NCBI GenBank assembly: GCA_964016885.1
Contig: OZ024741.1
Coordinates: 156,240,001 to 156,304,000, forward strand
From: Eledone cirrhosa
Lineage: Eukaryota
DNA length: 64,000 bases
Direction of reading: 5' to 3'
The notes beneath the pieces are model-generated. The model saw only the letters and a program-made list of their open reading frames with translations, had not been told where the DNA came from and searched no databases. Below are positions 3,893 through 55,391 of the stretch, one piece after another. The position numbers were made by a program, and so were the translations under genes. How positions within the stretch are numbered: position 1 is the stretch's first letter; each line of letters opens with the position of its first letter.

Positions 3893-6380
3893 ATGTAAAA
3901 GAAATCAAAGAACGCCTACATACTCATACAATTTTTATTTGCTGACAATGTTTCATCTCATCCATACCATTGGGCAGGAATCATGAGAGCTTTATAAACA
4001 AAAATACAGTGCTGAGTATAAGCTCTACCAAGCTTAGTCACATGAACATTAGAAATAAAATAGAGGGTAACAAGAGGAAGATCGGAAATGGCAAGTATGG
4101 AGAGAGTGCATAGTGGGGTTGTTATTCAACACTACAGCTATATGCTAGGGTACAGGCAGATATTTTCACAAGATGCGGTAGCACGTGAACGCACACAAAA
4201 GCAAAAAGTATAAACAATAGTTAAAACATATAATAGTAAAGTAAAAGGAAAATAATAATATAAAGAGATTGTGGTCCCTGATCGTTAGCATAACGTCCTA
4301 AGTATTGTCACCCCATTGATGGCGAATGATACTGCAGCCCATTGCTATTACGAGGAAGGTAATTCAAATACTGGCCCCATCTGGCTTAGTCCCACAGACC
4401 CATATGGGCATATCTAGTTCAATTGTTAGATTCTCCCTACTACGGGACATGCGTACACTGCCCGACCCCCATAATTGGTAATAGATACGGCTCGTACCGG
4501 GTTTGGGGACACCGTGCTTGCACTTTAGGATTATTAGAGTTCCCTTTACCGTAGAACCTATATTTTATACTATCTGTTTGAACCCGACCCGTTTGAACAC
4601 TCCCCCATAATAGAATTAGTAAAGCTATCCTTGGGCTTATCGACATATCATAAGGTAACCGCGATTCAATAGTCTTTAGTATGACACACTTGACTATTCT
4701 GGAGGTCCAATAATAATTAATAGTAATATAGTTTTTATTTGTACGAATCTTGTTGAATTAGTATGATTATTCTGTTGGTGATTACATTGTTGGTGGTCGT
4801 TCGAATTAAATAGCGTTATAGTTGACACGTTAGAGTAGTCCCCCTTTCTCTACCACTGTAACGTCATTACTTGGTGACTGAAGGAAGTAACACCCTGTAT
4901 GTACCTTCTACGTTATGAATTGATGTGTATATACCCATAGCGGTGACGAACGAAGTAGCGTGTGTTTGTTTTTTATGGAGCCAAATTCCTAAATTTCCGC
5001 GGGGTAAGTAAGCTGTCTTATATAATTTGTGTATGCCTGTTTAGGTATGACCCCACCTAATAGACATATTGGGTACCTGGTGGATTTACTGATTTGAGCA
5101 CTTTGTGTTATTTTCTGTTTTGTATAGATTGTTAATCCACGTGCTGTACGAGTTTGGAGAACTACTGCTGTACTTAACCTGGAATTATTTTGACGTATTC
5201 GGGGCTGGATTAGATATGACGAATTTGGTTGTACAGAATCTGGAGCTCCAACTTGGACACATTGTACTTCACGGTCTGGGATTTTAAACATGTGGAGATT
5301 TTTTGATGTGTAAATTCAGCCTGTAATACATGTTACTATATGTGATGATATGTTTTTCGTAAGCGTATGAATCCGACTGGATTGCATTTTACGGACTATC
5401 TACATATGTTATAAACTCTGGACCAAATTACTATCTACGGACAATCCACTATCTTTATAACTCATAGACAATCGGGACATATGAAACCGATTGGACTAAC
5501 CTCTACGGTAGATACACATATGTAGTGACTCCTCGCCAGATGTGTGTTTTTTACAGGAACTAAACCATTTTTGTTATGTATTTTTCCTTCAGCCTGATCA
5601 TGCAATAACCCCGCTTTGCTTGTGTTTGACTTGTATTGATGTGGTACCTGTCTATATACAGATTTAGCACCCATGGTCCACGTAATTCCGTAACCTACTA
5701 GTATACCTTGATTATGTATACTATGGGGAGGAATAAAATCCCATTTGGGCTTTCTGAAGGTACCTTGGGAGCTTCTTAGTATTTATATAACTCTAAGTTA
5801 TGGAGAACTAAATCACCTGTTATATATAGTGACCAACGCATACTTTCCTCTGGTTTTTTGTGTGCTTTAAATTAAATTTTTTCTTTTTCTTTTTAAATTT
5901 TCTTTATCTCTTTATATTATTACTTTCCTTTTACTTTATTATTATATGTTTTAACTATTGTTTATACTTTTTGCTTTTGTGTGGCCTCACGTGCTTCCGC
6001 ATCTTGTGAAAATATCTGTGCCTGTACCTTAGCATATAGCTGTAGTGCTGAATAACAACCCCACTATGCACTCTCTCCATACTCGCCATTTCCGATCTCC
6101 CTCTTGTTACTCTCTATTGTATTTCTAATGTTCATGTGACTAAGCTTGGTAGAGCTTATACTCAGCACTGTATTTTTGTTTATAAAGCTCTGATGATTCT
6201 TGCCCCATGGTACGGATGAAACATTGTCAGCAAGTAAAAATTGTATAAGTATGTAGGCGTTCTTTGATTTCTTTTACATATAACGGCTCTGTTCTCGTAC
6301 ATTGAGCTTATACAATACTGTCACGAATACGACACGGTTCAGGTGCGTTTATGCACATACGCTCCGTGGTCTACGTAAAT
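3893..6380 (+). mobile_element. Penelope-like element with about 375-bp inverted arms, HHR and 3' tail
   Basis: 3893-4268 is the reverse complement of about 5907-6281; unpaired tail 6282-6380; (TA)n on both sides; HHR in the arm. Confidence 0.75.
6187..6231 (+). ncRNA. Type I hammerhead ribozyme motif
   Basis: gct-CTGATGA-stem II-GAAA-catt-GTC-agc; the inverted copy at about 3941-3990 has CTCATGA. Confidence 0.75.
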
Positions 6381-6642: not shown

Positions 6643-6687
6643 TTCTACAGGACTAGAGTTGTTTCATTCAAATGAAATCATCAGGAA
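6643..6687 (-). ncRNA. Type I hammerhead motif (family of 24298/24966)
   Basis: Reverse complement reads ttc-CTGATGA-tttcatttgaat-GAAA-caactctagtcctg-TA-gaa. Confidence 0.7.
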
Positions 6688-27606: not shown

Positions 27607-28039
27607 ACACACTCACATATTCTCCCTCACTTACAGGCAAGAGAAAATACAAGATATTGTAAAACAAAGTTTGATTGCTCCCCCGGGAAGGTTTCCGAAA
27701 TAATACATTCTTGACAGCACACAGCAAGAGAAACACTTAATAAATACATCAACGGCACAATAACAACAACTAAAATAACAACAATCCCCAACACCAACAG
27801 AGACAGAGCTACGATATCGAACTACAACATACAGCGACAACTACAGTAACAACAACGATAAAGTCAAATCCATAATAAGAAGAAAATTATTAAACTAAAA
27901 CAACAACATACAACACACAACTAGAACTACAATAAGCACGACAACAAAAACGATCTCAACAATAACAAAAACATACATTATAGATAAAATAACAAGCACG
28001 ATCTCAACACGCACACATAACAAACAACACAAACACAAC

Positions 28040-31000
28040 GACAACACACATACAGCAACAGCACACAACTCCAATAACACCACAAACAGCAACAGCCAAC
28101 ACAACAACACACAACTCCAATAATACCACAAACGAACAACAGCCATCACAACAACAACACAACACCAATAACACCACAAACAAACAACACCCAACACAAC
28201 AACACACAACTCCAATAACAGCACAAACAAACAACAGCCAACACAACAACAACATAACCCCAATAACACCACAAACAAACAACAGCCGACACAACAACAC
28301 ACAACTCCAATAACACCACAAACAACAACAGCCAACACAACAACAGCCAACACAACAACAACACAACTCCAATGACACCACAAATAAACAACAGCCAACA
28401 CAACAACACACAACTCGAATAACACCGCAAACAAAAACAGCCAACACAACAACAACACAACTCCAATAACACCACAAACAAACAACAGCCGACACAAGAG
28501 CACACAACTCCAATAATATCACAAACAACAACAGCCAACACAACAACAACACAACCCCAATAACACCACAAACAAACAACAGCCAACACAAGAACACACA
28601 ACTCCGTTAATATCACAAACAAGAACAGCCAACACAACAACAAAACAACTCCAAGAACATCACAAACAACAACATTCAACACGACAACAACACACAACTC
28701 CAATAACACCACAAACAAACAACAGCCAACACAACAACACAACTCCAATAACACGACAAACAGCCAACAGCCAACACAAGAACACACAACTCCAATAATA
28801 TCACAAACAACAACACAACTCCAATAACATCACAAACAACAACAGCCAACACAACAACAACACAACTCCAATAACATCACAAACAACAACAGCCAACAAC
28901 AACACAACTCCAAGAACATCACAAACCACAACAGCCAACACAACAACAACACAACTCCAATAACACCACAAACAAACAACAGCCAACACAAGAACACACA
29001 ACTCCAATAACGTCGCAAACAACAACAGCCAACACAACAACAACACAACTCCAATAACACGACAAACAAACAACAGCCAAGACAAGAACAACACAACACC
29101 AATAAAACCACAAACAAACAACAGCCAACACAAGAACACACAACTCCAATAATATCACAAACAACAACAGCCAACACAACAACAACACAACTCCAATAAC
29201 ACCACAAATAAACAACAGTCAACACAAAAACACACAACTCGAATAACACCGTTAACAACAACAGCCAACACAACAAAAACACAACTCCAATAACACTACA
29301 AACAAACAACAGCCAACACAACAACAACACAACTCCAATAACACCACAAACAAACATCAGCCAACACAACAACAACACAACTCCAATAACATCACAAACA
29401 ACAACAGCCAACACAACAACACAACTCCAATAACACAAACAACAACAGCCAACACAACAACAACACAAGTCCAATAACATCACAAACAAACAACAGCCAA
29501 CACAACTACAACACAACTCCAATAACACCACAAACAAACAACAGCCAACACAAGAACACACAACTCCAATAATATCACAAACAACAACAGCCAACACAAC
29601 AACAACACAACTCCAATAACACCACAAACAAACATCAGCCAACACAACAACACACAACTCCAATAACATCACAAACAACAACAGCCAACACAACAACAGC
29701 ACAACTCCAATAACACAAACAACAACAGCCAACACAACAACAACACAAGTCCAATAACATCACAAACAAACAACAGCCAACACAACTACAATAACACTAC
29801 AAACAAACAACAGCCAACACAACAACAACACAACTCCAATAACACGACAAACAAACAACAGCCAACACAAGAACACAACACTCCAATAATATCACAAACA
29901 ACAACAGCCAAAATAACAACACAACTCCAATAACATCACAAACAACAACAACAGCACAACTCCAATAACATCACAAATAACAACAGCCAACACAACAACA
30001 ACAGAAATTCAAATAACATCACAAACAACAACAGCCAACAACAACACAACTCCAAGAACATCACAAACAACAACAGCCAACACAACAACAACACAACTCC
30101 AATAACATCACAAACAAACAACAGCCAACACAACAACATAACTCCAATAACATCACAAACCACAACAGCCAACACAACAACAACACAACTCCAATAACAT
30201 CACAAACAAACAACAGCCAACACAACAACAACACAACTCCAATAACACCACAAACAAACATCAGCCAACACAGCAACGCACAACTCCAATAATATCACAA
30301 ACAACAACAGCCAACACAACAACAACACAACTCCAATAACATCACAAACAACAACAGCCAACACAACAACAGCACAACTCCAATAACACAAACAACAACA
30401 GCCAACACAACAACAACACAAGTCCAATAACATCACAAACAACAACAGCCAACACAACTACAATAACACTTCAAACAAACAACAGCCAACACAACAACAA
30501 CACAACTCCAATAACACGACAAACAAACAACAGCCAACACAAGAACACACAACTCCAATAATATCACAAACAACAACAGCCAAAACAACAACACAACTCC
30601 AATAACATCACAAACAACAACAACACAACTCCAATAACATCACAAATAACAACAGCCAACACAACAACAACAGAAATTCAAATAACATCACAAACAACAA
30701 CAGCCAACAACAACACAACTCCAAGAACATCACAAACAACAACAGCCAACACAACAACAACACAACTCCAATAACATCACAAACAAACAACAGCCAACAC
30801 AACAACACAACTCCAATAACATCACAAACCACAACAGCCAACACAACAACATAACTCCAATAACATCACAAACAAACAACAGCCAACACAACAACATAAC
30901 TCCAATAACATCACAAACCACAACAGCCAACACAACAACAACACAACTCCAATAATATCACAAACAAACAACAGCCAACACAACAACACAACTCCAATAA

Positions 31001-31160
31001 CATCACAAACAACAACAGCCAACACAACAACAACACAACTCCAATAACATCACAAACAACAACAGCCAACACAACAACACAACTCCAATAACATCACAAA
31101 CCACAACAGCCAACACAACAACAACACAACTCCAATAACACAAACAAACAACAACAAAAA
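28040..31160. repeat. AC-rich satellite, about 42-48-bp unit
   Basis: ACAACTCCAATAACA(T/C)CACAAACAACAACAGCCAACACAACAACAAC repeated over about 3.1 kb. Confidence 0.95.
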
Positions 31161-40858: not shown

Positions 40859-43800
40859 TAGCATTAAAGACCGGTGTTGCTCGGGGTCAGTAAGTTACCA
40901 AAGTTAAGTTGCACCACCCATTTTATGGCAGCATTTTTTTGTCTGCCAGGCACTGGTTGAATGAATTGCAAACCTGCACTGGCGAACAGGAGCTGCGCCA
41001 GCAGTGACAATTGTAGTTTCGCCTATTGATATTATCTCTGTGCAAAGAAGTGCTCAAATTTATTGTTTCACAGTACTTGCGCAACACGCGCGTAGACGAT
41101 GCCAGCCGAACAACAGAGCTGCGATGGAGTTGTTCTGCATGACATGTTTTAACGGGAGAGGGGCGGATTGAGGGAACCGCAAACTGGGGCCTGAAAACAT
41201 TGTCGAATTATGACAACCAAAAAAGAGGAAGAGGGATCATTGTATGGTTGGTGCATCATGTACGTCGGACGTAGAAGATGAGCCTGCGGCTGTGCCGACG
41301 GAGGGAGGGAAATAGAGCTGGGTGGAGGCCAGGTGTTGGTGAAGTGTGAAGTAATTGCAGGGAACCGCGTAAAAATCTAAATCCCGTCATTAAAGCATTG
41401 TTGACCCTTTGAGAGTCGTACGGAGGTGAAATACTAACCTGTCCACCGTCCTCCGAGGCCCACCAAACGGGGGTTGGTGAGGAGCAACAGCTGATATTTG
41501 AGTAGGGTCGGAGTTGCAATGAAGTTTTGTAACGCCGCGAGAATCAGCCTTTGTACGGCAGATGGTGGGTAGTGTCCAGTGCACTGCAGTGAAGGTTAAC
41601 CTACTTAGAAAGTACTCACGAAAAGGCAAAAAATAAAAAAATAAAAAATGTTATAAAATTAGGAATCAAGGTAATCCTATAAAACCTCCTTGTACATAAA
41701 GTTTTTTTTGTTTTTCCTTGCGGAACGAACGCGAAATCATCACTCTTGCTGCCGACACGCGAGCAGCCATTAAAGCTGACCATGAGAGAAACACGGCTCC
41801 CCCAAATGTATTCCCGCGACAGACAGTGTTTGTCCCTGCGCTTTGTTAATTGACATTGCGAAGCATGGCTTGACCGGGAACTGGGACCTCCGAAATGTGA
41901 GAGGTAGGTCTGTTCCTGATGGGAAAAGATGCATCCTCGGTATGAGCACAAACTTGCCCCGACCACACCCTGTGATTATCGTGGCCTCAATCAGATTGGG
42001 AGCTAAGGACTTAACGACCAAACGTGTGCCATTGCATTGTTTCGGCGGAACCAAATTTCGAATGAGCATTATAGGGGCACCAACTTTAAGTTTCAAAATG
42101 TGTGGGGGTAATCCGAGGGGCTCAAAGGAATTTAGTACCTCTATTGGATAGTTGATGACGCCCTCGGGGTCAGGAGTTCTATCGATAGACTTATATACGT
42201 AGCCATCCCCAGGAATGAGTTTTAGCATTTGATCATTAATATGGTTAACAGTTTTATTCCTCGGGGCCAGAATAGCCCTTTGGCCAAGCCAATCCATATT
42301 CTGATAATTTGCTTGGAGATCTGGGAACACTGCATCCCTGAGATCAGAAGGCGTACTAACAACGGTACAAAGTGATTCGATGGCAATATTACCCTTTTCA
42401 TCCCCGGGCGTTTTGCCTTCGCCAAGTGCAAGGATGGTGTGAGAAAATGCTGCTGATGTGATATCACCTCGCATATGAGCACGCATGTTAGTGTGAAGTT
42501 TCAGAGTCTTCACCAGGGGCCACAATGCAGATGACTTAAGACACGCACGTACTGCATCAGCTATAGTCCCCTTGGGAATAACGGGAAGCGTTTGCCTGAA
42601 TTCCTCTGAAAGAAGAAGTGTTATGCCTCCCATTGGAGCCGTAGAGTCTTTGATATCTCTCAGAGTTCTATCGAACGCCTCAAGAGCACCTCTGTGGGCC
42701 ATCGTGCATTCGTCCTTCTGTTCGCCTAATCTTAGCTAATATTAATTTGGTGACAAAAGTCTTCCCAGTCCCCCCAGGAGCGTCCAGGAAAAAATCCCCC
42801 CAGCTTTTCCCCGGACAGAATTAACAACGGAGTTGTAAGCGAATTTCTGTTCTGAAAGGAGCTTTGGCTCATTCTCTGCTATGTACTGGGAAAGCTCGTC
42901 AACATTATAAAATGTCTCACGCAGCAAATCCGAAGACAGAGTGTTTGCACATTCCCGGTTTGTTGAAGGTAGGCCATACACAGCTAACGCACTACCGCCC
43001 ATATCGAGAACAGTATCTTCGATTTCAAGCAGCGCCCTGTTGTAAATGAGGTAAAATGGGTTTAGCAACTGAGCGTGACGCAGGAAATCTTCAGACATGT
43101 AATCTTTGTAGCTAAACCATAAAGAGGCCGGATCACCCAAGTCACACCATAGGAGTAGAATAGCGAAAAGCGATCTAGTCTTTTAGGAGATTTCAATAAA
43201 ACGCCCTCTGCCATAGTGGCGCCCCATTGTGAATCATCCTCCAAAAGGTCACGTCTAAAGCAGGCTTCCCGGAAAGTATCACATAATTCACCGTCAACAG
43301 TTCTTATGTCTCGAAAGCTTTGTGGACCAAAAACCTCATGGAGAAGAAGGCGCAGGTGAAAACACTCATGCTGGTTGGGAGGTGTAGTGTACACTCTTCC
43401 TAGACAACTGTCAAACTTGACACCAGGATGTCCTTCAACATCCTGACCTGACTTCCTACGCACCCAAGTGTTGTTGGACCACACGTAGTAGGACGGGACC
43501 TGAGGATATGAAAGTGTTTTTGCAAATGTGTCAAGTTGGCAAAGCGTAAAACAAACAGTCAAATTTGTTTCTTTTGGATTGGCCGCCAAATGAGCAGCAG
43601 TCTGTTCAGTAAAGTAAGCCCGCTGGCCGTTTTCCAAATGAACCGCTAGTTGTATGATGGCGGGGTGCCTTTGGTGAACTGGAAACCCAAATATCCGCCA
43701 AAAAGCTTCACCCCTGCTGATATATCGATCTGCCAAGTACTCCGAGACCTCGTCCCTGCTATTGTCGTTTTGAAGGCCGAACATGGCAGCGTCGGAACCC

Positions 43801-46800
43801 TTGTTAACATATTTACATATGTACTTTATCGACTTCACTGAATGACAGAACTCCACATTTATATGAGCGTTGAAGGTTTTCATCAGAAATGGACAGTACG
43901 GGACCACCCACCTATTATCAATTTGATGACCCCGTAACGTCATAGTGAATCCACCGTTCTCAGGCCGCCTTCGTCTGTACAGTGGGTATCCGTCGCCGCC
44001 GGTCTGGGTCTCCTCAACAAACCTCTTTGGGTATCGTTTAGTGCACACATGGTCCTTGTGGCATGAGGAGAACTCTTGAAAACCGGGTCCGCACGGACCG
44101 TGCACCATGTGTGCCTTCACAATGTCGTACAGCTGCCGGTCAACAACGGGGTCCGGGATTTCCGCTGCGATGACGTCATCTATAACTGTAGGGTCTATTT
44201 TGGTGACCAACCAAACCAAAATGTGCGCGTGTGGCAACCCTCTCTTCTGCCACTCAACAGTATACATGTGGCACCTTAGAGGCCCGAAAACCTTCCCTTT
44301 TTTTATTAGATCAATTAGGTTAGCCAGCTTCTGCCTGAAACCCCTGGCAATAATATCATGCTGATGGCAGTACCTCTGCCCTGGGATAAGTTCCCGCGTA
44401 ACCTCAACCCACTTGGGCTTACACGTAAACGTGATGAATAACTCGGGGCGCCCATAATGCCGAACGAACGTCATAGCGTCCTGTGTTCGCTCGTGCATGT
44501 ACCGCGCCCCCTCCCCGTATAGGTTGAGGGGAGAATGCACATTTTGCCGATGTTCGCGGGGTCAGTGTCATTCCTGATGCCGTCACGCAAATGGATGTAG
44601 GAGTCTGAGCGCAGCTGCTTCTGATTCAATTTTATGAAGCACAGTCTCTCCGACTCCATCTTTGCAGCCATGTCAATTGCAAACTGGTGAAACAGTTCTC
44701 GTGACCTGTGCAGGGTGCTGAAATCGTTAGGCCTCGTCATGAAGCGGTATGAGTATAAAGCCATGCATGAAACAGCTTTAGATGTTGCAGCAGTGGGCTC
44801 GTTTGGTTTGCGCTGAGGAATGCCGAAATGGTACCCGTCTATTCCGTATGCAAAGAGAACGGGATACTGCAGGGCGTCGTATGAACGATGCGTCTCATTA
44901 ATACGTCGAAGACCACTGTCACGACTTTGAAGAACTATGTCTTGCTTATTGTGCTGTTCATCATGGATAACTACGGCCACTTCATTGCACGAAGGAGCGT
45001 TATAACAGCGTGCGTGCTCCCCAGAAAGTCTTTTGTCAGCATCGATGACAATGGTGAAGTTTGGTGAAGGATGTGTTTCGAATGCGTATTTGAAACTGCG
45101 AATATAACTGTTGTGCTCATGAAGCATGTTTTGAAGATCGAGCAGCACGTCCCTTTCAAAAGTGTCAGCGTCAGTGTTTGCATGTGTTGGAATAACGCCG
45201 AACCACGCATCAACTTGCCTACTGTAGTTAGAAATGAAGTAAATTTGAAGGAACGAAGGCTTGCAAGATGGTACACCTGCCCCTGGACCTTGAAAGTAGG
45301 CATCCAACCACTTTCTCTGACAACGTTAGCCCCGAAAGAAGTTATTTGAAACGCACAATTGTACTTCCTGATGAGTTGAAGGAATTTGGATGACCTTGAG
45401 GTAGAACCAGTAAGTAGTTCCTTCAAAGGCTCTGGTGGTTCCCCAAGAGGGGGCAAGCTAACCTTACCGTTTAAGCAGCACATTGCAGGTGGTTCCGAAC
45501 CCACTTTTTAGCATTGCAGAATTTGCAATTGAAGCGCATTTCCCGTATATTTATGTCGGCACGCATCGAGTAGTTAACGTTGGGCTCATACTTGAAAGCC
45601 CGTAGGTGCCAGTATGGGCTGTCGGAGCTCGTCACACCGTGGGCAGCTTCTTGTCGTCGACTGGTCCGCTCCAACGTAGAATGTTGCTCCTGTGGGTCGT
45701 GGGAAGCTCTCGCAGCAGTAGCAGAAGTCACCCTTGCAATCCTAGTGGAGCGCCCGTCTGCATCTTCAGAAGCCATGGAATCAGTCATAGCCGCAGCGTT
45801 CCTAGCAAGGCGATTCATCCGCCGTTCCAAACCTTCCAAAGCCCTGGAAGCAGCAGTAGCCGCACTGTTTCTATTCAGGCGAGTCGACCTTTGTTCCGGG
45901 CTCTCTGAAGCCCTGGAAGTAGCAGTAGAAGCGTTTTTGGGGGAATGACGTATCCCCCGCTCCGAATCGCACATCGCAGCACGTCTCGAGGCGTCGTATG
46001 AAGCCATCTTGACTAGGCGTGCGGTGCGGTGTTGAAAACTTTCAGCAGCTCTGCATTCCGCTGAACGGAAGGCGCTCTGTGAAAGTCTTAAAGCAGTTTC
46101 CTCGGGGGGTTCGTTTGCTGTAATCGCCCTCTGCGCCGCCGCTGACGCAGTATGGCGACCGAGGCGACTTCTCTTTTTATGTGGCATTGTATGTGAAAAA
46201 GAAAGGGTGAAAGTTACTTCTACAGCAAAATTGCCTTTGAAAGTGTAAGGGTGAAAACTGTCTGCGTTCCGCAGGTGAAAAAATGGGAGAACGAACGGTT
46301 AATAAATAACTCACAGTTTGTTGAAAGCGCGCTTCTGTCAGCAATTTGAAGTTGTTTGGCCAAAAATCTCTATTTGTTTGTTTTTTTCACTCAATAAACG
46401 TGTAAATATGTTATAAACAAAATGTAATTGTGTGTGAGCATGTATTTTTTTTTTTTTGAATAGAGAGAGGAAATTATTTCCGTAATTGTGAGTGATTTTG
46501 AAATAAATAAATAGTCGTTGATCTAAGTTAGACCATTTACAACATTCTTACAGAGGCAAATAAATAACTCACAGTTTGTTTAAAGCGCGCTTCTGTCAGC
46601 AATGTGAAGTTGTTTGGCCAAAAATCCCTATGTGGTTTTTTTTTCACTCAATAAACGTGTAAATATGTTATACACAAAATGTAATTGTGTGAAATTATTA
46701 AGGAGTGGGTTTATAAACGTATATAAGAGATGTAAGCGTCATGTATTTAACGTTTGTCTCTGTCTCTGACTCTCTGGCTACCTCCTTTATTTTCTCTCTC

Positions 46801-51540: not shown

Positions 51541-51547
<7 letters not shown>

Positions 51548-52409
51548 GAAAGGTATAGAAAACACTGCAGCGAAAAGCCAAGACCATTCCATAATATATA
51601 AGTGACTATAGCGTCTAAATGGGAAAAATAGTTAACGTAAGATGTGGGAAAAATAATTCAAACTCATCTCAAAGAGAATCAGGATATAAATTCATCCACA
51701 GAATTTAGTGAAATCCAGGGAAAAATCATAGAGCCTTAACTCATGATAAAATAAAGTTTAAAATACTTATCCTTCAATTTGGAAAAACTTTAAATGCTCT
51801 GTATAGTCTTAAAGACTATTTCATGAAAACTTTCAGTGGAGATGGTCACGGTTGGAATTCAATCCTCAGCAGAGCTCAACTCGATAACCAGGATTCTCAC
51901 AGATTTATATGCCAAAAGGGAATTTTAAAACAGGTTAGTTTACCATCATGCGTGATTATGAAAAACGCACATGAGGAAAGACATGGCTAGTGACGTCAGA
52001 ATGAGATGAATGATTGTTTACAAGAAACAACAGTCAAAAACATTCCGAAAATTACTCTACAAAAGGAGTTCAGCAAAAAGCAATATTATCGCAGTTTTTT
52101 ATTAAAAAAACCGGGATTAGTCACAAATAATTTAAGCACTCTAGGAAAAAAATCCGAGTATAAATATATAAATGAAAGGTATAGAAAACACTGCAGCGAA
52201 AAGCCAACAGCATTCCATAACATATAAGTGACTATAGCGTCAAAATGGGAAAAATAATTAACGTAAGATGTGGGAAAAATAATTCAAACTCATCTCAAAG
52301 AGAATCAGGATATAAATTCATCCACAGAATTTAGTGAAATCCAGGGAAAAATCAATAGAGCCTTAGCTCATGATAAAATAAAGTTTAAAATACTCATCCT
52401 TCAATTTGG

Positions 52410-52412
<3 letters not shown>
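51541..52412 (-). mobile_element. 626-bp HHR monomer, about 1.4 tandem copies
   Basis: AATGAAAGGTATAGAAAACACTGCAGCG at 51545 and 52171; (TA)n flanks. Confidence 0.85.
51796..51875 (-). ncRNA. Type I hammerhead with full stems
   Basis: Reverse complement reads gctctg-CTGAGGA-ttga...tcat-GAAA-tagtct-tta-agacta-TA-cagagc. Confidence 0.8.
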
Positions 52413-52660: not shown

Positions 52661-52750
<90 letters not shown>

Positions 52751-52754
<4 letters not shown>

Positions 52755-53696
52755 AGATAAGCAGAACAAGTAAAATTCAACCAATTTTTCAAAATAAATC
52801 AAAATTAATATACAATTAAAATTAATCAAAATTAAAAAATATAATATAAATATTTACCTATTCAAATGGCCCTAACTGTACAGTTTCACGGTGCAAAACA
52901 TTAAATATCACGAGGATATTAATGGAAAAGCAACGATCATCAGAGAAGCATTTTCCTGTCCTAGGGTTAAAAACCCCAGGAACCACAAAATATATGACCT
53001 CACTCCAACTAATACAGGTCTAAAAGGTCGTGAAAGTGACCCGTAAATACATTGGTGTATAGTGAAGGCGGGAAATCGTAGACTCGCCGTCTATAATCGC
53101 CACTAAAAAAAAAATTTTTAGTAACTAAATAGAACGACAAATTTTTATCTCTACATACTGGAGATTATTGAATAAGGTTAATATATATCTGAGGGTACAA
53201 TGTACCCCCGGAAATATATAGTGTGTCTATGATTTAAGGTGGTTCTATGGTAATAATTTGATATACCAGAACTTAATATCAAGATAAGCAGAACAAGTAA
53301 AATTCAACCAATTTTTCAAAATAAATCAAAATTAATATACAATTAAAATTAATCAAAATTAAAAAATATAATATAAATATTTACCTATTCAAATGGCCCT
53401 AACTGTACAGTTTCACGGTGCAAAACATTAAATATCACGAGGATATTAATGGAAAAGCAACGATCATCAGAGAAGCATTTTCCTGTCCTAGGGTTAAAAA
53501 CCCCAGGAACGACAAAATATATGACCTCACTCCAACTAATACAGGTTTAAAAGGTCGTGAAAGTGACCCGTAAATACATTGGTGTATAGTGAAGGCGGGA
53601 AATCGTAGACTCGCCGTCTATAATCGCCACTAAAAAAAAAAATTTTTAGTAACTAAATAGAACGACAAATTTTTATCTCTACATACTGGAGATTAT

Positions 53697-53699
<3 letters not shown>
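52751..53699 (-). mobile_element. 527-bp HHR monomer, about 1.8 tandem copies (HHRs 52869-52949, 53396-53476)
   Basis: ATCAAGATAAGCAGAACAAG at 52751 and 53278; CTGATGA..GAAACTGTACAGTTA on -. Confidence 0.88.
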
Positions 53700-53732
<33 letters not shown>

Positions 53733-53793
53733 ATAATAATAAAATTGATGACTACGCCGGGCCATTCTGCTTAAACTTTAATCTGTTATTTTA

Positions 53794-53836
<43 letters not shown>

Positions 53837-54669
53837 TATATTCGTGTACATATATTTTTGCATACACAATAACAAAATATATACAAACGTATTTATTTCA
53901 CGAGGCTCGATAAGGATAAATATATATCAAATATATAAGAACCCTAGAGCAAATCCCGAGCAACGCCGGGCCATTCTGCTAGTCATCACTACATTGTAAG
54001 GCAATAACTCTTGAGAGAAAATCTAAGCGGCTGATCTCAGAACTGATCAGTCACATTACTCATAGTAACTTTCCTATCAACTCAATTGAAAGTGTCGTCA
54101 CAGATTATACCATTTTGTACTTTCTGTCCTTAAATATATATACGCCCCGATGACTGTGTTAAAATCTGATCACCTCCTTAAAGGTTTTTAACATCATTAG
54201 TACAGTACCAACATAACTTACTGACAAATTGGAGCTGATGTTTTATCGTTTTGTTTTTATCTTTAATTTTTTTTTTTGCTATTATAGTTTATGAAGACCA
54301 AGAAAGAAAACAAAATATAAGAAAATAGGAAAGAAAAAGATTAGAAAAAAAAGGGAAAGAAAACTTTTAACTACTTCCTTTTTCAGTAAGCACTTATCTT
54401 GTAAAAGATTTTCGAAAGCCATTTACGATTTCCGCTGTAGGTATTCCAGACCCACTAAATAAGTATATATGAAGTAAATTGACTATTATTCTTGAAATTC
54501 AGTGCATAAGGACTTTATTTTTAGTAATAATTATATATACGAGCTTTATAGACAGACAGTTTAAAAAATAAACTGCTTAACGGGTTTTTCGCATATTCTG
54601 ATAACTTTCTATATAAATATGGTATTCTATGACGCTACATACATACATACATATACACGCGCACACACA

Positions 54670-54761
<92 letters not shown>

Positions 54762-54762
<1 letters not shown>

Positions 54763-55350
54763 GTGTAAGGTTAATATATCTGAGGGTACAATGTGCCCCC
54801 AGAAATACATGGTTGTCTATGATTCAAGGTGGTTCTATGGTAATAATTTGATATACCAGAACTTAATATGAAGATAAGCAGAACAAGTAAAATTCAACCA
54901 ATTTTTCAAAATAAATCAAATTAATTTACAATTAAAATTAATCAAAATTAAAAAATATAATATAAATATTTACCTATTCGGGTTGCTCTTACTGTACAGT
55001 TTCACTTTGCAAAACATTAGATATCACATGGATATTAATGGAAAAGCAAAGATCATCAGAGAAGCATTTTCCTTTCCTAGGGGTAAAAACCCCAGGAACG
55101 ATAAAATATATGACCTGACTCCAACTAATACAGGTCTGAAAGGTCGTGAAAGTGACCCATAAATACGTTGGTGTATAGTGAAGGCGGGAAATCGTAGACT
55201 TGTTGTCTATGTTTGCCACCCAAAAAATAAATTTTTAGCAGCTAGATAGAACGACAGAGTTTTTTCTCTACATAATCGGAGAATAAAGTGTAAGGTTAAT
55301 ATATCTGAGGGTACAATGTACCCCCAGAAATACATGGTTGTCTATGATTC

Positions 55351-55354
<4 letters not shown>
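54762..55354 (-). mobile_element. 525-bp monomer of the same family, about 1.1 copies, different start register
   Basis: AGTGTAAGGTTAATATATCTGAGGG at 54762 and 55287. Confidence 0.88.
54984..55066 (-). ncRNA. Type I hammerhead, extended stem II
   Basis: Reverse complement reads tgcttct-CTGATGA-t-ctttgc..hairpin..gcaaag-t-GAAA-ctgtaca-GTA-agagca. Confidence 0.82.

Positions 55355-55391
<37 letters not shown>

Follow-up and report, generated by a model that had tools for sequence, protein, structure and literature searches.

A hammerhead-bearing tandem repeat family with two fixed 3' ends in the Eledone cirrhosa genome: a probable non-autonomous, PLE-type retrozyme

The two inserts and their hammerhead motif

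The window, that is, the whole 64,000-nt stretch of Eledone cirrhosa DNA analysed here, contains two inserts of one tandem repeat, each unit of which carries a hammerhead ribozyme (HHR) motif (Table 1). Unit positions u1-u527 follow the minus strand and correspond to the reverse complement of 52751-53277. Insert 1 is laid out as u107-u527 followed by u1-u527, and its redundant 421 bp show 3 differences between the copies. Insert 2 is about 90% identical to insert 1, is truncated on its 5' side at u39 and has a redundancy of 68 bp with 1 difference. The earlier note had described the inserts as partial multimers of a 527-bp HHR unit with one minus-strand HHR per unit, no credible ORF and (TA)n at the bounds, and all of this was confirmed. 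The inserts comprise 1.80 and 1.12 units (527 and 525 bp), and stop-to-stop frames within them do not exceed 60 aa in insert 1 and 94 aa in insert 2. (TA)n adjoins all four insert ends. Two complete HHRs are found in insert 1 and one in insert 2, and the motif search gave no HHR on the plus strand of the insert region. The same note had considered the unit longer than known animal retrozymes; this is not so, since consensus lengths of 51-972 bp are reported (bioRxiv 10.64898/2026.07.22.740005). The unit is of low GC and highly self-paired, as non-LTR retrozymes are, and folds better than shuffled sequences (z = -6.4; 0 of 100 shuffles as good).

Table 1. Coordinates of the inserts, their hammerhead motifs, ends and flanks (window positions)
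Feature	Position	Strand	Remarks
Insert 1	52751..53699	(-)	949 bp, 1.80 units of 527 bp, 3' end = site A, 5'-truncated
HHR copy 1 of insert 1	53395..53477	(-)	core 53464-53470, GUU, predicted cut between 53401 and 53400
HHR copy 2 of insert 1	52868..52950	(-)	core 52937-52943, predicted cut between 52874 and 52873
Site A, main fixed 3' end	52751..52760	(-)	123 nt downstream of predicted HHR cut
A-to-B tail, u1-u112	53166..53277	(-)	two predicted hairpins, conserved in sister family
Predicted cut-to-cut 527-nt monomer	52874..53400	(-)	candidate linear or circular RNA, from HHR coordinates
(TA)n target, 3' flank of insert 1	52664..52749	.
(TA)n target, 5' flank of insert 1	53699..53729	.
Insert 2	54762..55354	(-)	1.12 units of 525 bp, second subfamily, 3' end = site B (54762)
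Sole HHR of insert 2	54984..55066	(-)	core 55053-55059, perfect stem II, GUA, H17 at 54990
(TA)n target, 3' flank of insert 2	54673..54762	.
(TA)n target, 5' flank of insert 2	55356..55387	.

The sequence of site A also occurs internally, at 53277/53278 in insert 1 and near 54868 in insert 2. The tail between sites A and B is a candidate RT-binding element. Release of a 527-nt monomer would be possible from insert 1 only, because insert 2 has one HHR.

Within the unit the HHR occupies u328-u410, with the core at u335-341 and the predicted cut after u404. It is of type I. Stem II has six pairs and closes a long inner hairpin, stem III is palindromic, and stem I is short and bulged. The core CUGANGA...GAAA...UH is present together with stems I-III, H17 being U or A. 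In place of the canonical G10.1-C11.1 pair, U·U stands at 10.1/11.1 in this and in the two related families described below. The U10.1-U11.1 arrangement is a natural HHR variant for which the highest activity among mispairs is reported (Perreault et al. 2011, PMC3088659). A long stem II, a short stem I and a palindromic stem III are described as traits of the hammerheads of Penelope-like elements (PLEs), for which dimers are thought to be needed (PMC4209133). A plant LTR retrozyme, with a type III HHR in each of two LTRs, is ruled out by the type I topology and the tandem units.

Cleavage at GUA, as the earlier note had it, applies to insert 2 only; the triplet of insert 1 is GUU. Among 149 HHR copies the triplet is GUU in 109, GUA in 38 and another in 2. 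The noted difference in stem II between the copies is real, with one compensatory pair in CGTTGC/GCACCG of insert 1. It is not cleanly compensatory, because the same stem II holds one U·C mismatch. The youngest and most numerous subfamily has the poorer-looking HHR (GUU, stem II mismatch), which counts against the cleavage model. Rfam returned no HHR at the gathering score or at E up to 10, only microsatellite noise, and in single HHR regions the full hammerhead is not the minimum-energy structure. Identification as an HHR is based on the motif and on stem covariation between three families, the covariation being the main support for what would be a real ribozyme.

Several other repeats lie in the window. 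A broken Helitron at 41770-46298 (-) has Helitron_like_N, PIF1 and STPRs Pfam matches in four frames. A CA-rich tandem array of 3.1 kb at 28020-31157 is strongly strand-skewed, with periods of 47 and 92 bp, and a 65-bp minisatellite at 1434-2320 has 13.6 copies with 95% matches. By eye, a segment of about 250 bp occurs twice, at about 51545-51800 and 52170-52411, each time adjoining (TA)n. Hammerhead-like motifs of other repeat families are located at 6190, 9049, 15054, 24971 and 62161 (+) and at 6684, 24341 and 47819 (-); several of them open with U10.1·U11.1. ARAGORN found no tRNA in the 64-kb window.

Fixed 3' ends and inverted pairs across the genome

An exact 23-mer from the unit occurs 598 times in the 3.0-Gb assembly, which corresponds to about 600 units. 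The best copies are 97-99% identical, and the family is young, its top copies reaching 98-99%. End frequencies were taken from three short internal queries, which gave 80 distinct register-neutral segments at an identity of at least 84%; full-unit queries are register-biased and were left out. All segments sampled amount to about 31% of an estimated 670 genome-wide.

The 3' ends of the register-neutral segments fall at site A in 61 cases, at site B in 15 and elsewhere in 4. The A ends are exact to the base (59 at u2 and 2 at u527). Site B covers u97-u116, mostly u106, u109 and u112, and lies about 105-110 nt downstream of site A. The 5' ends are scattered, with 72 distinct positions among the 80 segments. 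Nearly every end is followed by (AT)n: 145 of 153 at A and 44 of 46 at B. Genome-wide, 388 exact site-A ends into (AT)n were counted, together with 252 exact read-throughs at A into the next unit. Because it detects a single sub-register, the B-end pattern (32 matches, control 5) does not enter the counts. At least two complete HHRs are present in 31 of 207 segments.

Thus, the apparent circular permutation consists of two fixed 3' ends combined with ragged 5' truncation. Fixed internal priming is compatible with a circular template, yet it is not evidence for one. The earlier note had named two findings that would speak against its reading, namely fixed ends and constant joining to a PLE ORF. 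The first is found on the 3' side (A 61/80, B 15/80); the second is not found. A pile of 5' ends at u416-419 is seen in two subfamilies and may arise from trimming that runs from the cut as far as the next AT microhomology, from RT stalling or from plain microhomology.

Head-to-head inversions number 40 among the 208 segments of all samples. Their ends are A+B in 34, A+other in 4, B+B in 1 and B+other in 1, and A+A was not observed. Thirty-six inverted pairs have 40 or more positions in common. Their two pieces differ by 1.7%, and 9 pair-private alleles over 7006 sites are found in both; the inverted pieces therefore come mostly from one source, L144 being an exception. Partial tandems, 5' truncation, an inverted 5'-truncated copy and a tail at one end only are all found in the family. 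The same layout of partial tandems, inverted truncated copy and one-end tail is described for PLEs (PMC8557442, PMC3846280). The PLE protein of the anole is reported to nick and extend both strands of AT-rich DNA, and its RT to use two internal start sites that bound the tail downstream of the HHR (PMC11167929). Mobilisation by PLEs with two fixed start sites is very likely.

A sister family of 468 bp (1,897 search candidates; L182:5501-6418 and L257-L286) is 59% identical to the unit and has homologous A and B ends, with A+B in 11 of 12 inversions (30 loci, B-register query). In its HHR, stems I, II and III are changed in sequence and still paired, and the U·U is kept; this HHR is better paired and has GUA. 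A third family (L143:400-1000), 52% identical, has its own covarying HHR with U·U and also possesses the hairpin downstream of site A.

Some composite loci were also observed. In L128 and L210, a head-to-head junction links the unit to a fragment from another HHR family, and the fragment's own 3' end abuts (TA)n on the far side; each locus looks like one insertion made from two different RNAs. L032, L034 and L249 have a common inversion junction (u417 joined to inverted u93-96), which may reflect duplication or re-copying of a composite locus.

Ribozyme cleavage, the template of the multimers and the helper elements

For the analysis of 5' junctions, three duplicate loci (L034, L026 and L127) and intervals of more than 8 nt were removed. 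The first position after the predicted cut, u405, was set beforehand as the prediction. It lies within 7 of 200 5' breakpoint intervals, where 0.83 would be expected, and within 6 of 74 inversion junctions (0.37 expected), in which it is the highest position. A genome-wide search with the cut-site pattern gave 6 matches, 5 of them independent, all inversions and one new (L291). The expectation is 1.26 overall (P ~0.01) and 0.56 for inversions (P ~3e-4). A control window 10 nt upstream of the cut gave 0 where 1.6 would be expected. In the sister family, one junction includes the cut and another is 2 nt off.

The cut-site excess is small in number, and in the full set the AT-microhomology sites u3, u417 and u419 also reach 7, equal to u405. 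RT stalling at the folded HHR is an alternative reading of this excess. Of the seven cut-site segments, four additionally span one intact junction; a linear multimer cut only in part would be a sufficient source for them, with no need for a circle. The junction positions give moderate evidence that cleaved linear RNA is sometimes the template. A step in contig depth had suggested a large class of 125-nt copies starting at the cut; only 3 were found among 56 A-ended loci, two of them duplicates. Contig depth was accordingly left out of the analysis. For the anole PLE, cleavage is reported as dispensable in vitro, with uncut RNA as the main substrate (PMC11167929). Cleavage of the Eledone transcripts by the HHR in vivo is likely.

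The origin of the multimers was approached through variants shared by the units of one array. In 85 arrays, 16 array-private alleles in 18,156 site pairs are common to units, and these fall in 13 arrays. Comparison between arrays (pairs within 3%) gave 26 shared private alleles in 958,959 sites, so that private mutations are common to units within an array about 30 times more often than between related arrays. At 66 common polymorphic sites, within-array discordance is 18/2266 (0.8%), compared with 4.4% for arrays within 2%. Units of one array diverge by 1.06% on average, no less than an array does from the nearest other array (0.67%); overall identity therefore does not discriminate between the models, and only private and polymorphic sites do. 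The sharing of array-private alleles may also stem from unsampled homogeneous parent arrays, from gene conversion or from local duplication.

The longest array, L293 (G000:C3 near 352.31 Mb), has 7.8 units, an A end and an inverted B piece, and no ORF. Of its changes, 57 are private to one unit and 10 are present in every unit; in a further 7 columns a change is shared by a subset of the units, and these columns conflict in pattern. The pattern is star-like, as expected of one insertion copied from one unit. Its units differ by 3-4%, above the usual within-array value of 0.9%, which may be due to age, sequencing error or RT error.

These arrays are most simply explained if one unit was read repeatedly, the RT either going round a circle or jumping between the two cut ends, from 5' to 3'; this account is reasonably probable. 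That the main template is a covalent circle is somewhat less than an even chance. Circular RNA templates made by the HHRs of PLEs and retrozymes were proposed before (PMC4209133; PMC7229834).

The strongest competitor is a purely linear route, in which uncut or partly cut read-through transcripts are copied from A and B, and the multimers are inherited or lengthened at the DNA level. It agrees with the predominance of uncut RNA as PLE substrate in the anole (PMC11167929). Copies that start at the cut need a linear 5' end, and the intact HHR further on in four of the seven fits this route too. Twin priming on one linear RNA would place the 5' ends of B pieces close to site A, and 11 of 36 do fall there within 64 nt (P 0.003). 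Most A and B pieces overlap and together exceed the length of one unit, so priming of both on one circle would need strand displacement. In L002 and L062, variants shared by two of three units point to local duplication. Against the linear route, of the 56 loci picked by the A end alone, 15 exceed one unit, 1 exceeds two units and 3 have two HHRs. With so few loci above two units, arrays passed on solely as linear multimers would shrink through truncation unless they were regenerated. Furthermore, arrays are internally uniform across subfamilies 10% apart, recurrent position-specific variants are absent from them, and the 7.8-unit array is mostly star-like with the ends of a single insertion. 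A linear route as the whole explanation is unlikely, and repeated reading of one unit is preferred.

The helper of the family was sought among the PLEs of this genome. Autonomous PLEs co-occur with the unit, as in genomes with non-LTR retrozymes, and GIY-YIG matches are abundant (10,597 candidates, 150 scored). An RT domain was checked for in L182 and L200 only. In L182, a 5'-truncated ORF has an RVT_1 match (E 1e-6) slightly short of the curated cut-off, together with GIY-YIG matches and a CX4CxxC linker; these features point to Neptune or Nematis as the two groups are described (PMC8557442). A match of L182 to the unit turned out to be a separate sister-family insertion behind the (TA)n of the PLE. 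L200 is an inverted structure in which one end alone carries a tail, of 28 nt. An HHR-like motif was found in 12 of 20 long-ORF GIY-YIG loci and is of the U10.1·U11.1 type in 5. In L184, L185, L190, L194 and L196 this is a short U10.1·U11.1 HHR with U at the cleavage position, 350-400 nt behind the ORF. The GIY-YIG loci L181, L182, L189, L192, L197, L198 and L200 have an HHR-like motif with a U3 core variant, and in such loci the distance from the cut to (TA)n is mostly 117-203 nt.

The helper PLE is thus proposed by kind, with no homologous partner of the unit among 50 GIY-YIG loci. The copies could alternatively be 5'-truncated pLTRs of an autonomous PLE. Their end geometry and HHR type match the ORF-bearing PLEs of this genome, and most PLE insertions are reported to be truncated (bioRxiv 10.64898/2026.07.22.740005). 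This explanation is improbable. Units join head to tail, in arrays of up to 7.8 units and with the 252 exact read-throughs at A, and no ORF with RT and GIY-YIG lies between the repeats. A tblastn search of the unit-bearing loci with one PLE protein (5 loci with matches) found no PLE ORF directly joined to a unit, and a terminal repeat similar to the unit was present in 0 of the 50 GIY-YIG loci examined out of the 150 scored.

It is very improbable that the repeat is a DNA-level satellite or a DNA-transposon by-product with an accidental or dead HHR-like motif. The absence of an Rfam match and the folding of single HHR regions would agree with such an origin; the core and three paired stems are nevertheless kept across families 52-59% identical, and fixed 3' ends with ragged 5' ends, inversions and cut-site junctions are marks of retrotransposition. 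The least probable explanation is the one closest to the earlier note, by which reverse transcription starting at arbitrary points of a circular RNA gives circularly permuted copies, since 76 of the 80 register-neutral segments end at A or B and the different start registers of the terminally redundant window inserts, once taken as evidence of a circle, are one A end and one B end.

Proposed cycle and relation to known systems

The unit is probably a non-autonomous PLE parasite, a non-LTR retrozyme with two fixed 3' sites in (TA)n, whose RNA is likely self-cut to 527-nt units and re-read. The cycle would begin with transcription of a two-HHR locus, such as insert 1, on the minus strand. A weak and probably dimer-dependent HHR would then cut at least some of the transcripts after u404, as the junction positions suggest. 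By analogy with the PLE literature and with the PLEs present here, a PLE protein, probably of the Neptune or Nematis type, would nick (TA)n and prime internally at A; priming on the other strand would be at B, about 105-110 nt beyond. The resulting insertions are 5'-truncated, and the use of both strands gives head-to-head A+B pairs from one source. Copies longer than one unit would arise by repeated reading, either round a ligated circle or with a jump that takes the RT from the 5' to the 3' cut end, and copies that start exactly at the cut would derive from linear RNA. The most complete version of this cycle is tentative and, taken as a whole, somewhat unlikely. In it, a PLE-type HHR that cuts in the germ line would give a 527-nt circle, which the PLE RT would enter at two structure-defined sites, one per target strand. 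The circle would be rolled up to 8 times per insertion, sometimes with the RNA of another HHR family used on the other strand.

These results bear on two questions. One is what machinery mobilises animal retrozymes; the other is whether PLE hammerheads cleave in vivo and supply circular templates. Cleavage and circular templates have been proposed for PLE hammerheads (PMC4209133, PMC7229834), while cleavage was dispensable in vitro (PMC11167929). The junctions provide predictions exact to the base: starts at A and B, a cut at u404, and A on one strand with B on the other. A young ORF-less family and PLEs with the same HHR type in one genome form a compact test system for rolling versus linear reverse transcription. 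If a circle is indeed rolled by a PLE RT, this would be the first direct genomic demonstration of a PLE RT acting on ribozyme-made circles, and the tandems, tails and inversions of PLEs would be explained in one model.

The retrozyme class, its PLE origin and unit lengths of up to 972 bp are already in print (bioRxiv 10.64898/2026.07.22.740005), and mobilisation of animal non-LTR retrozymes by PLEs was proposed in two studies (Cervera & de la Pena 2020, PMC7229834; Li, Clavereau & Pollet 2026, bioRxiv 10.64898/2026.07.22.740005). In the retrozyme and PLE literature searched, no mapping of ends to two fixed start sites was found. Genomic junctions at the cut of a PLE-type HHR were likewise not found there; supplements may hold such data.

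The family shares the genomic features of non-LTR retrozymes: tandem non-coding units with a type I HHR in each, no long frame and, with fixed 3' and ragged 5' ends, no LTR layout. Like the animal members, it has low-GC units dispersed as monomers to multimers in a genome that also contains PLEs. Unlike them, it has an HHR of the PLE kind with the U10.1·U11.1 mismatch and mostly GUU, nearly all of its ends lie in (TA)n, and most copies are shorter than one unit; its circle is a candidate. The animal retrozyme papers, in the sections consulted, have no maps of the 3' and 5' ends of copies (PMC7229834, bioRxiv 10.64898/2026.07.22.740005), whereas this family has been mapped.

With EN+ PLEs the family has in common partial tandems, 5' truncation, a head-to-head inverted copy and a one-end tail (PMC8557442, PMC3846280, PMC11167929, PMC4209133), as well as the two start sites downstream of the HHR and the microsatellite targeting described for them. 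It differs from EN+ PLEs in that the unit has no RT-EN ORF and in the length of the tail, about 105-110 nt against a reported 30-40. Its 5' junctions at the HHR cut also contrast with the anole PLE, for which no RNA reads ending at the cut are described (PMC11167929). The non-autonomous Chlamys elements, for example MRC1, are similar in being non-coding PLE dependants with multicopy head-to-tail insertions in microsatellites (PMC8557442). These elements are described from green algae, have (CA)n or (C)n targets and mostly no HHR, and resemble a known autonomous family (PMC8557442); the unit has no such match in 50 GIY-YIG loci.

The natural U10.1-U11.1 hammerheads (PMC3088659) have the same opening of stem II with a U·U mismatch. 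In the genome studied here, the U·U HHR is common to several repeat families and to an ORF-linked PLE family within one animal. The unit family can be placed as an HHR-bearing, non-autonomous repeat of the PLE type and as a further non-LTR retrozyme, for which a circular intermediate is plausible.
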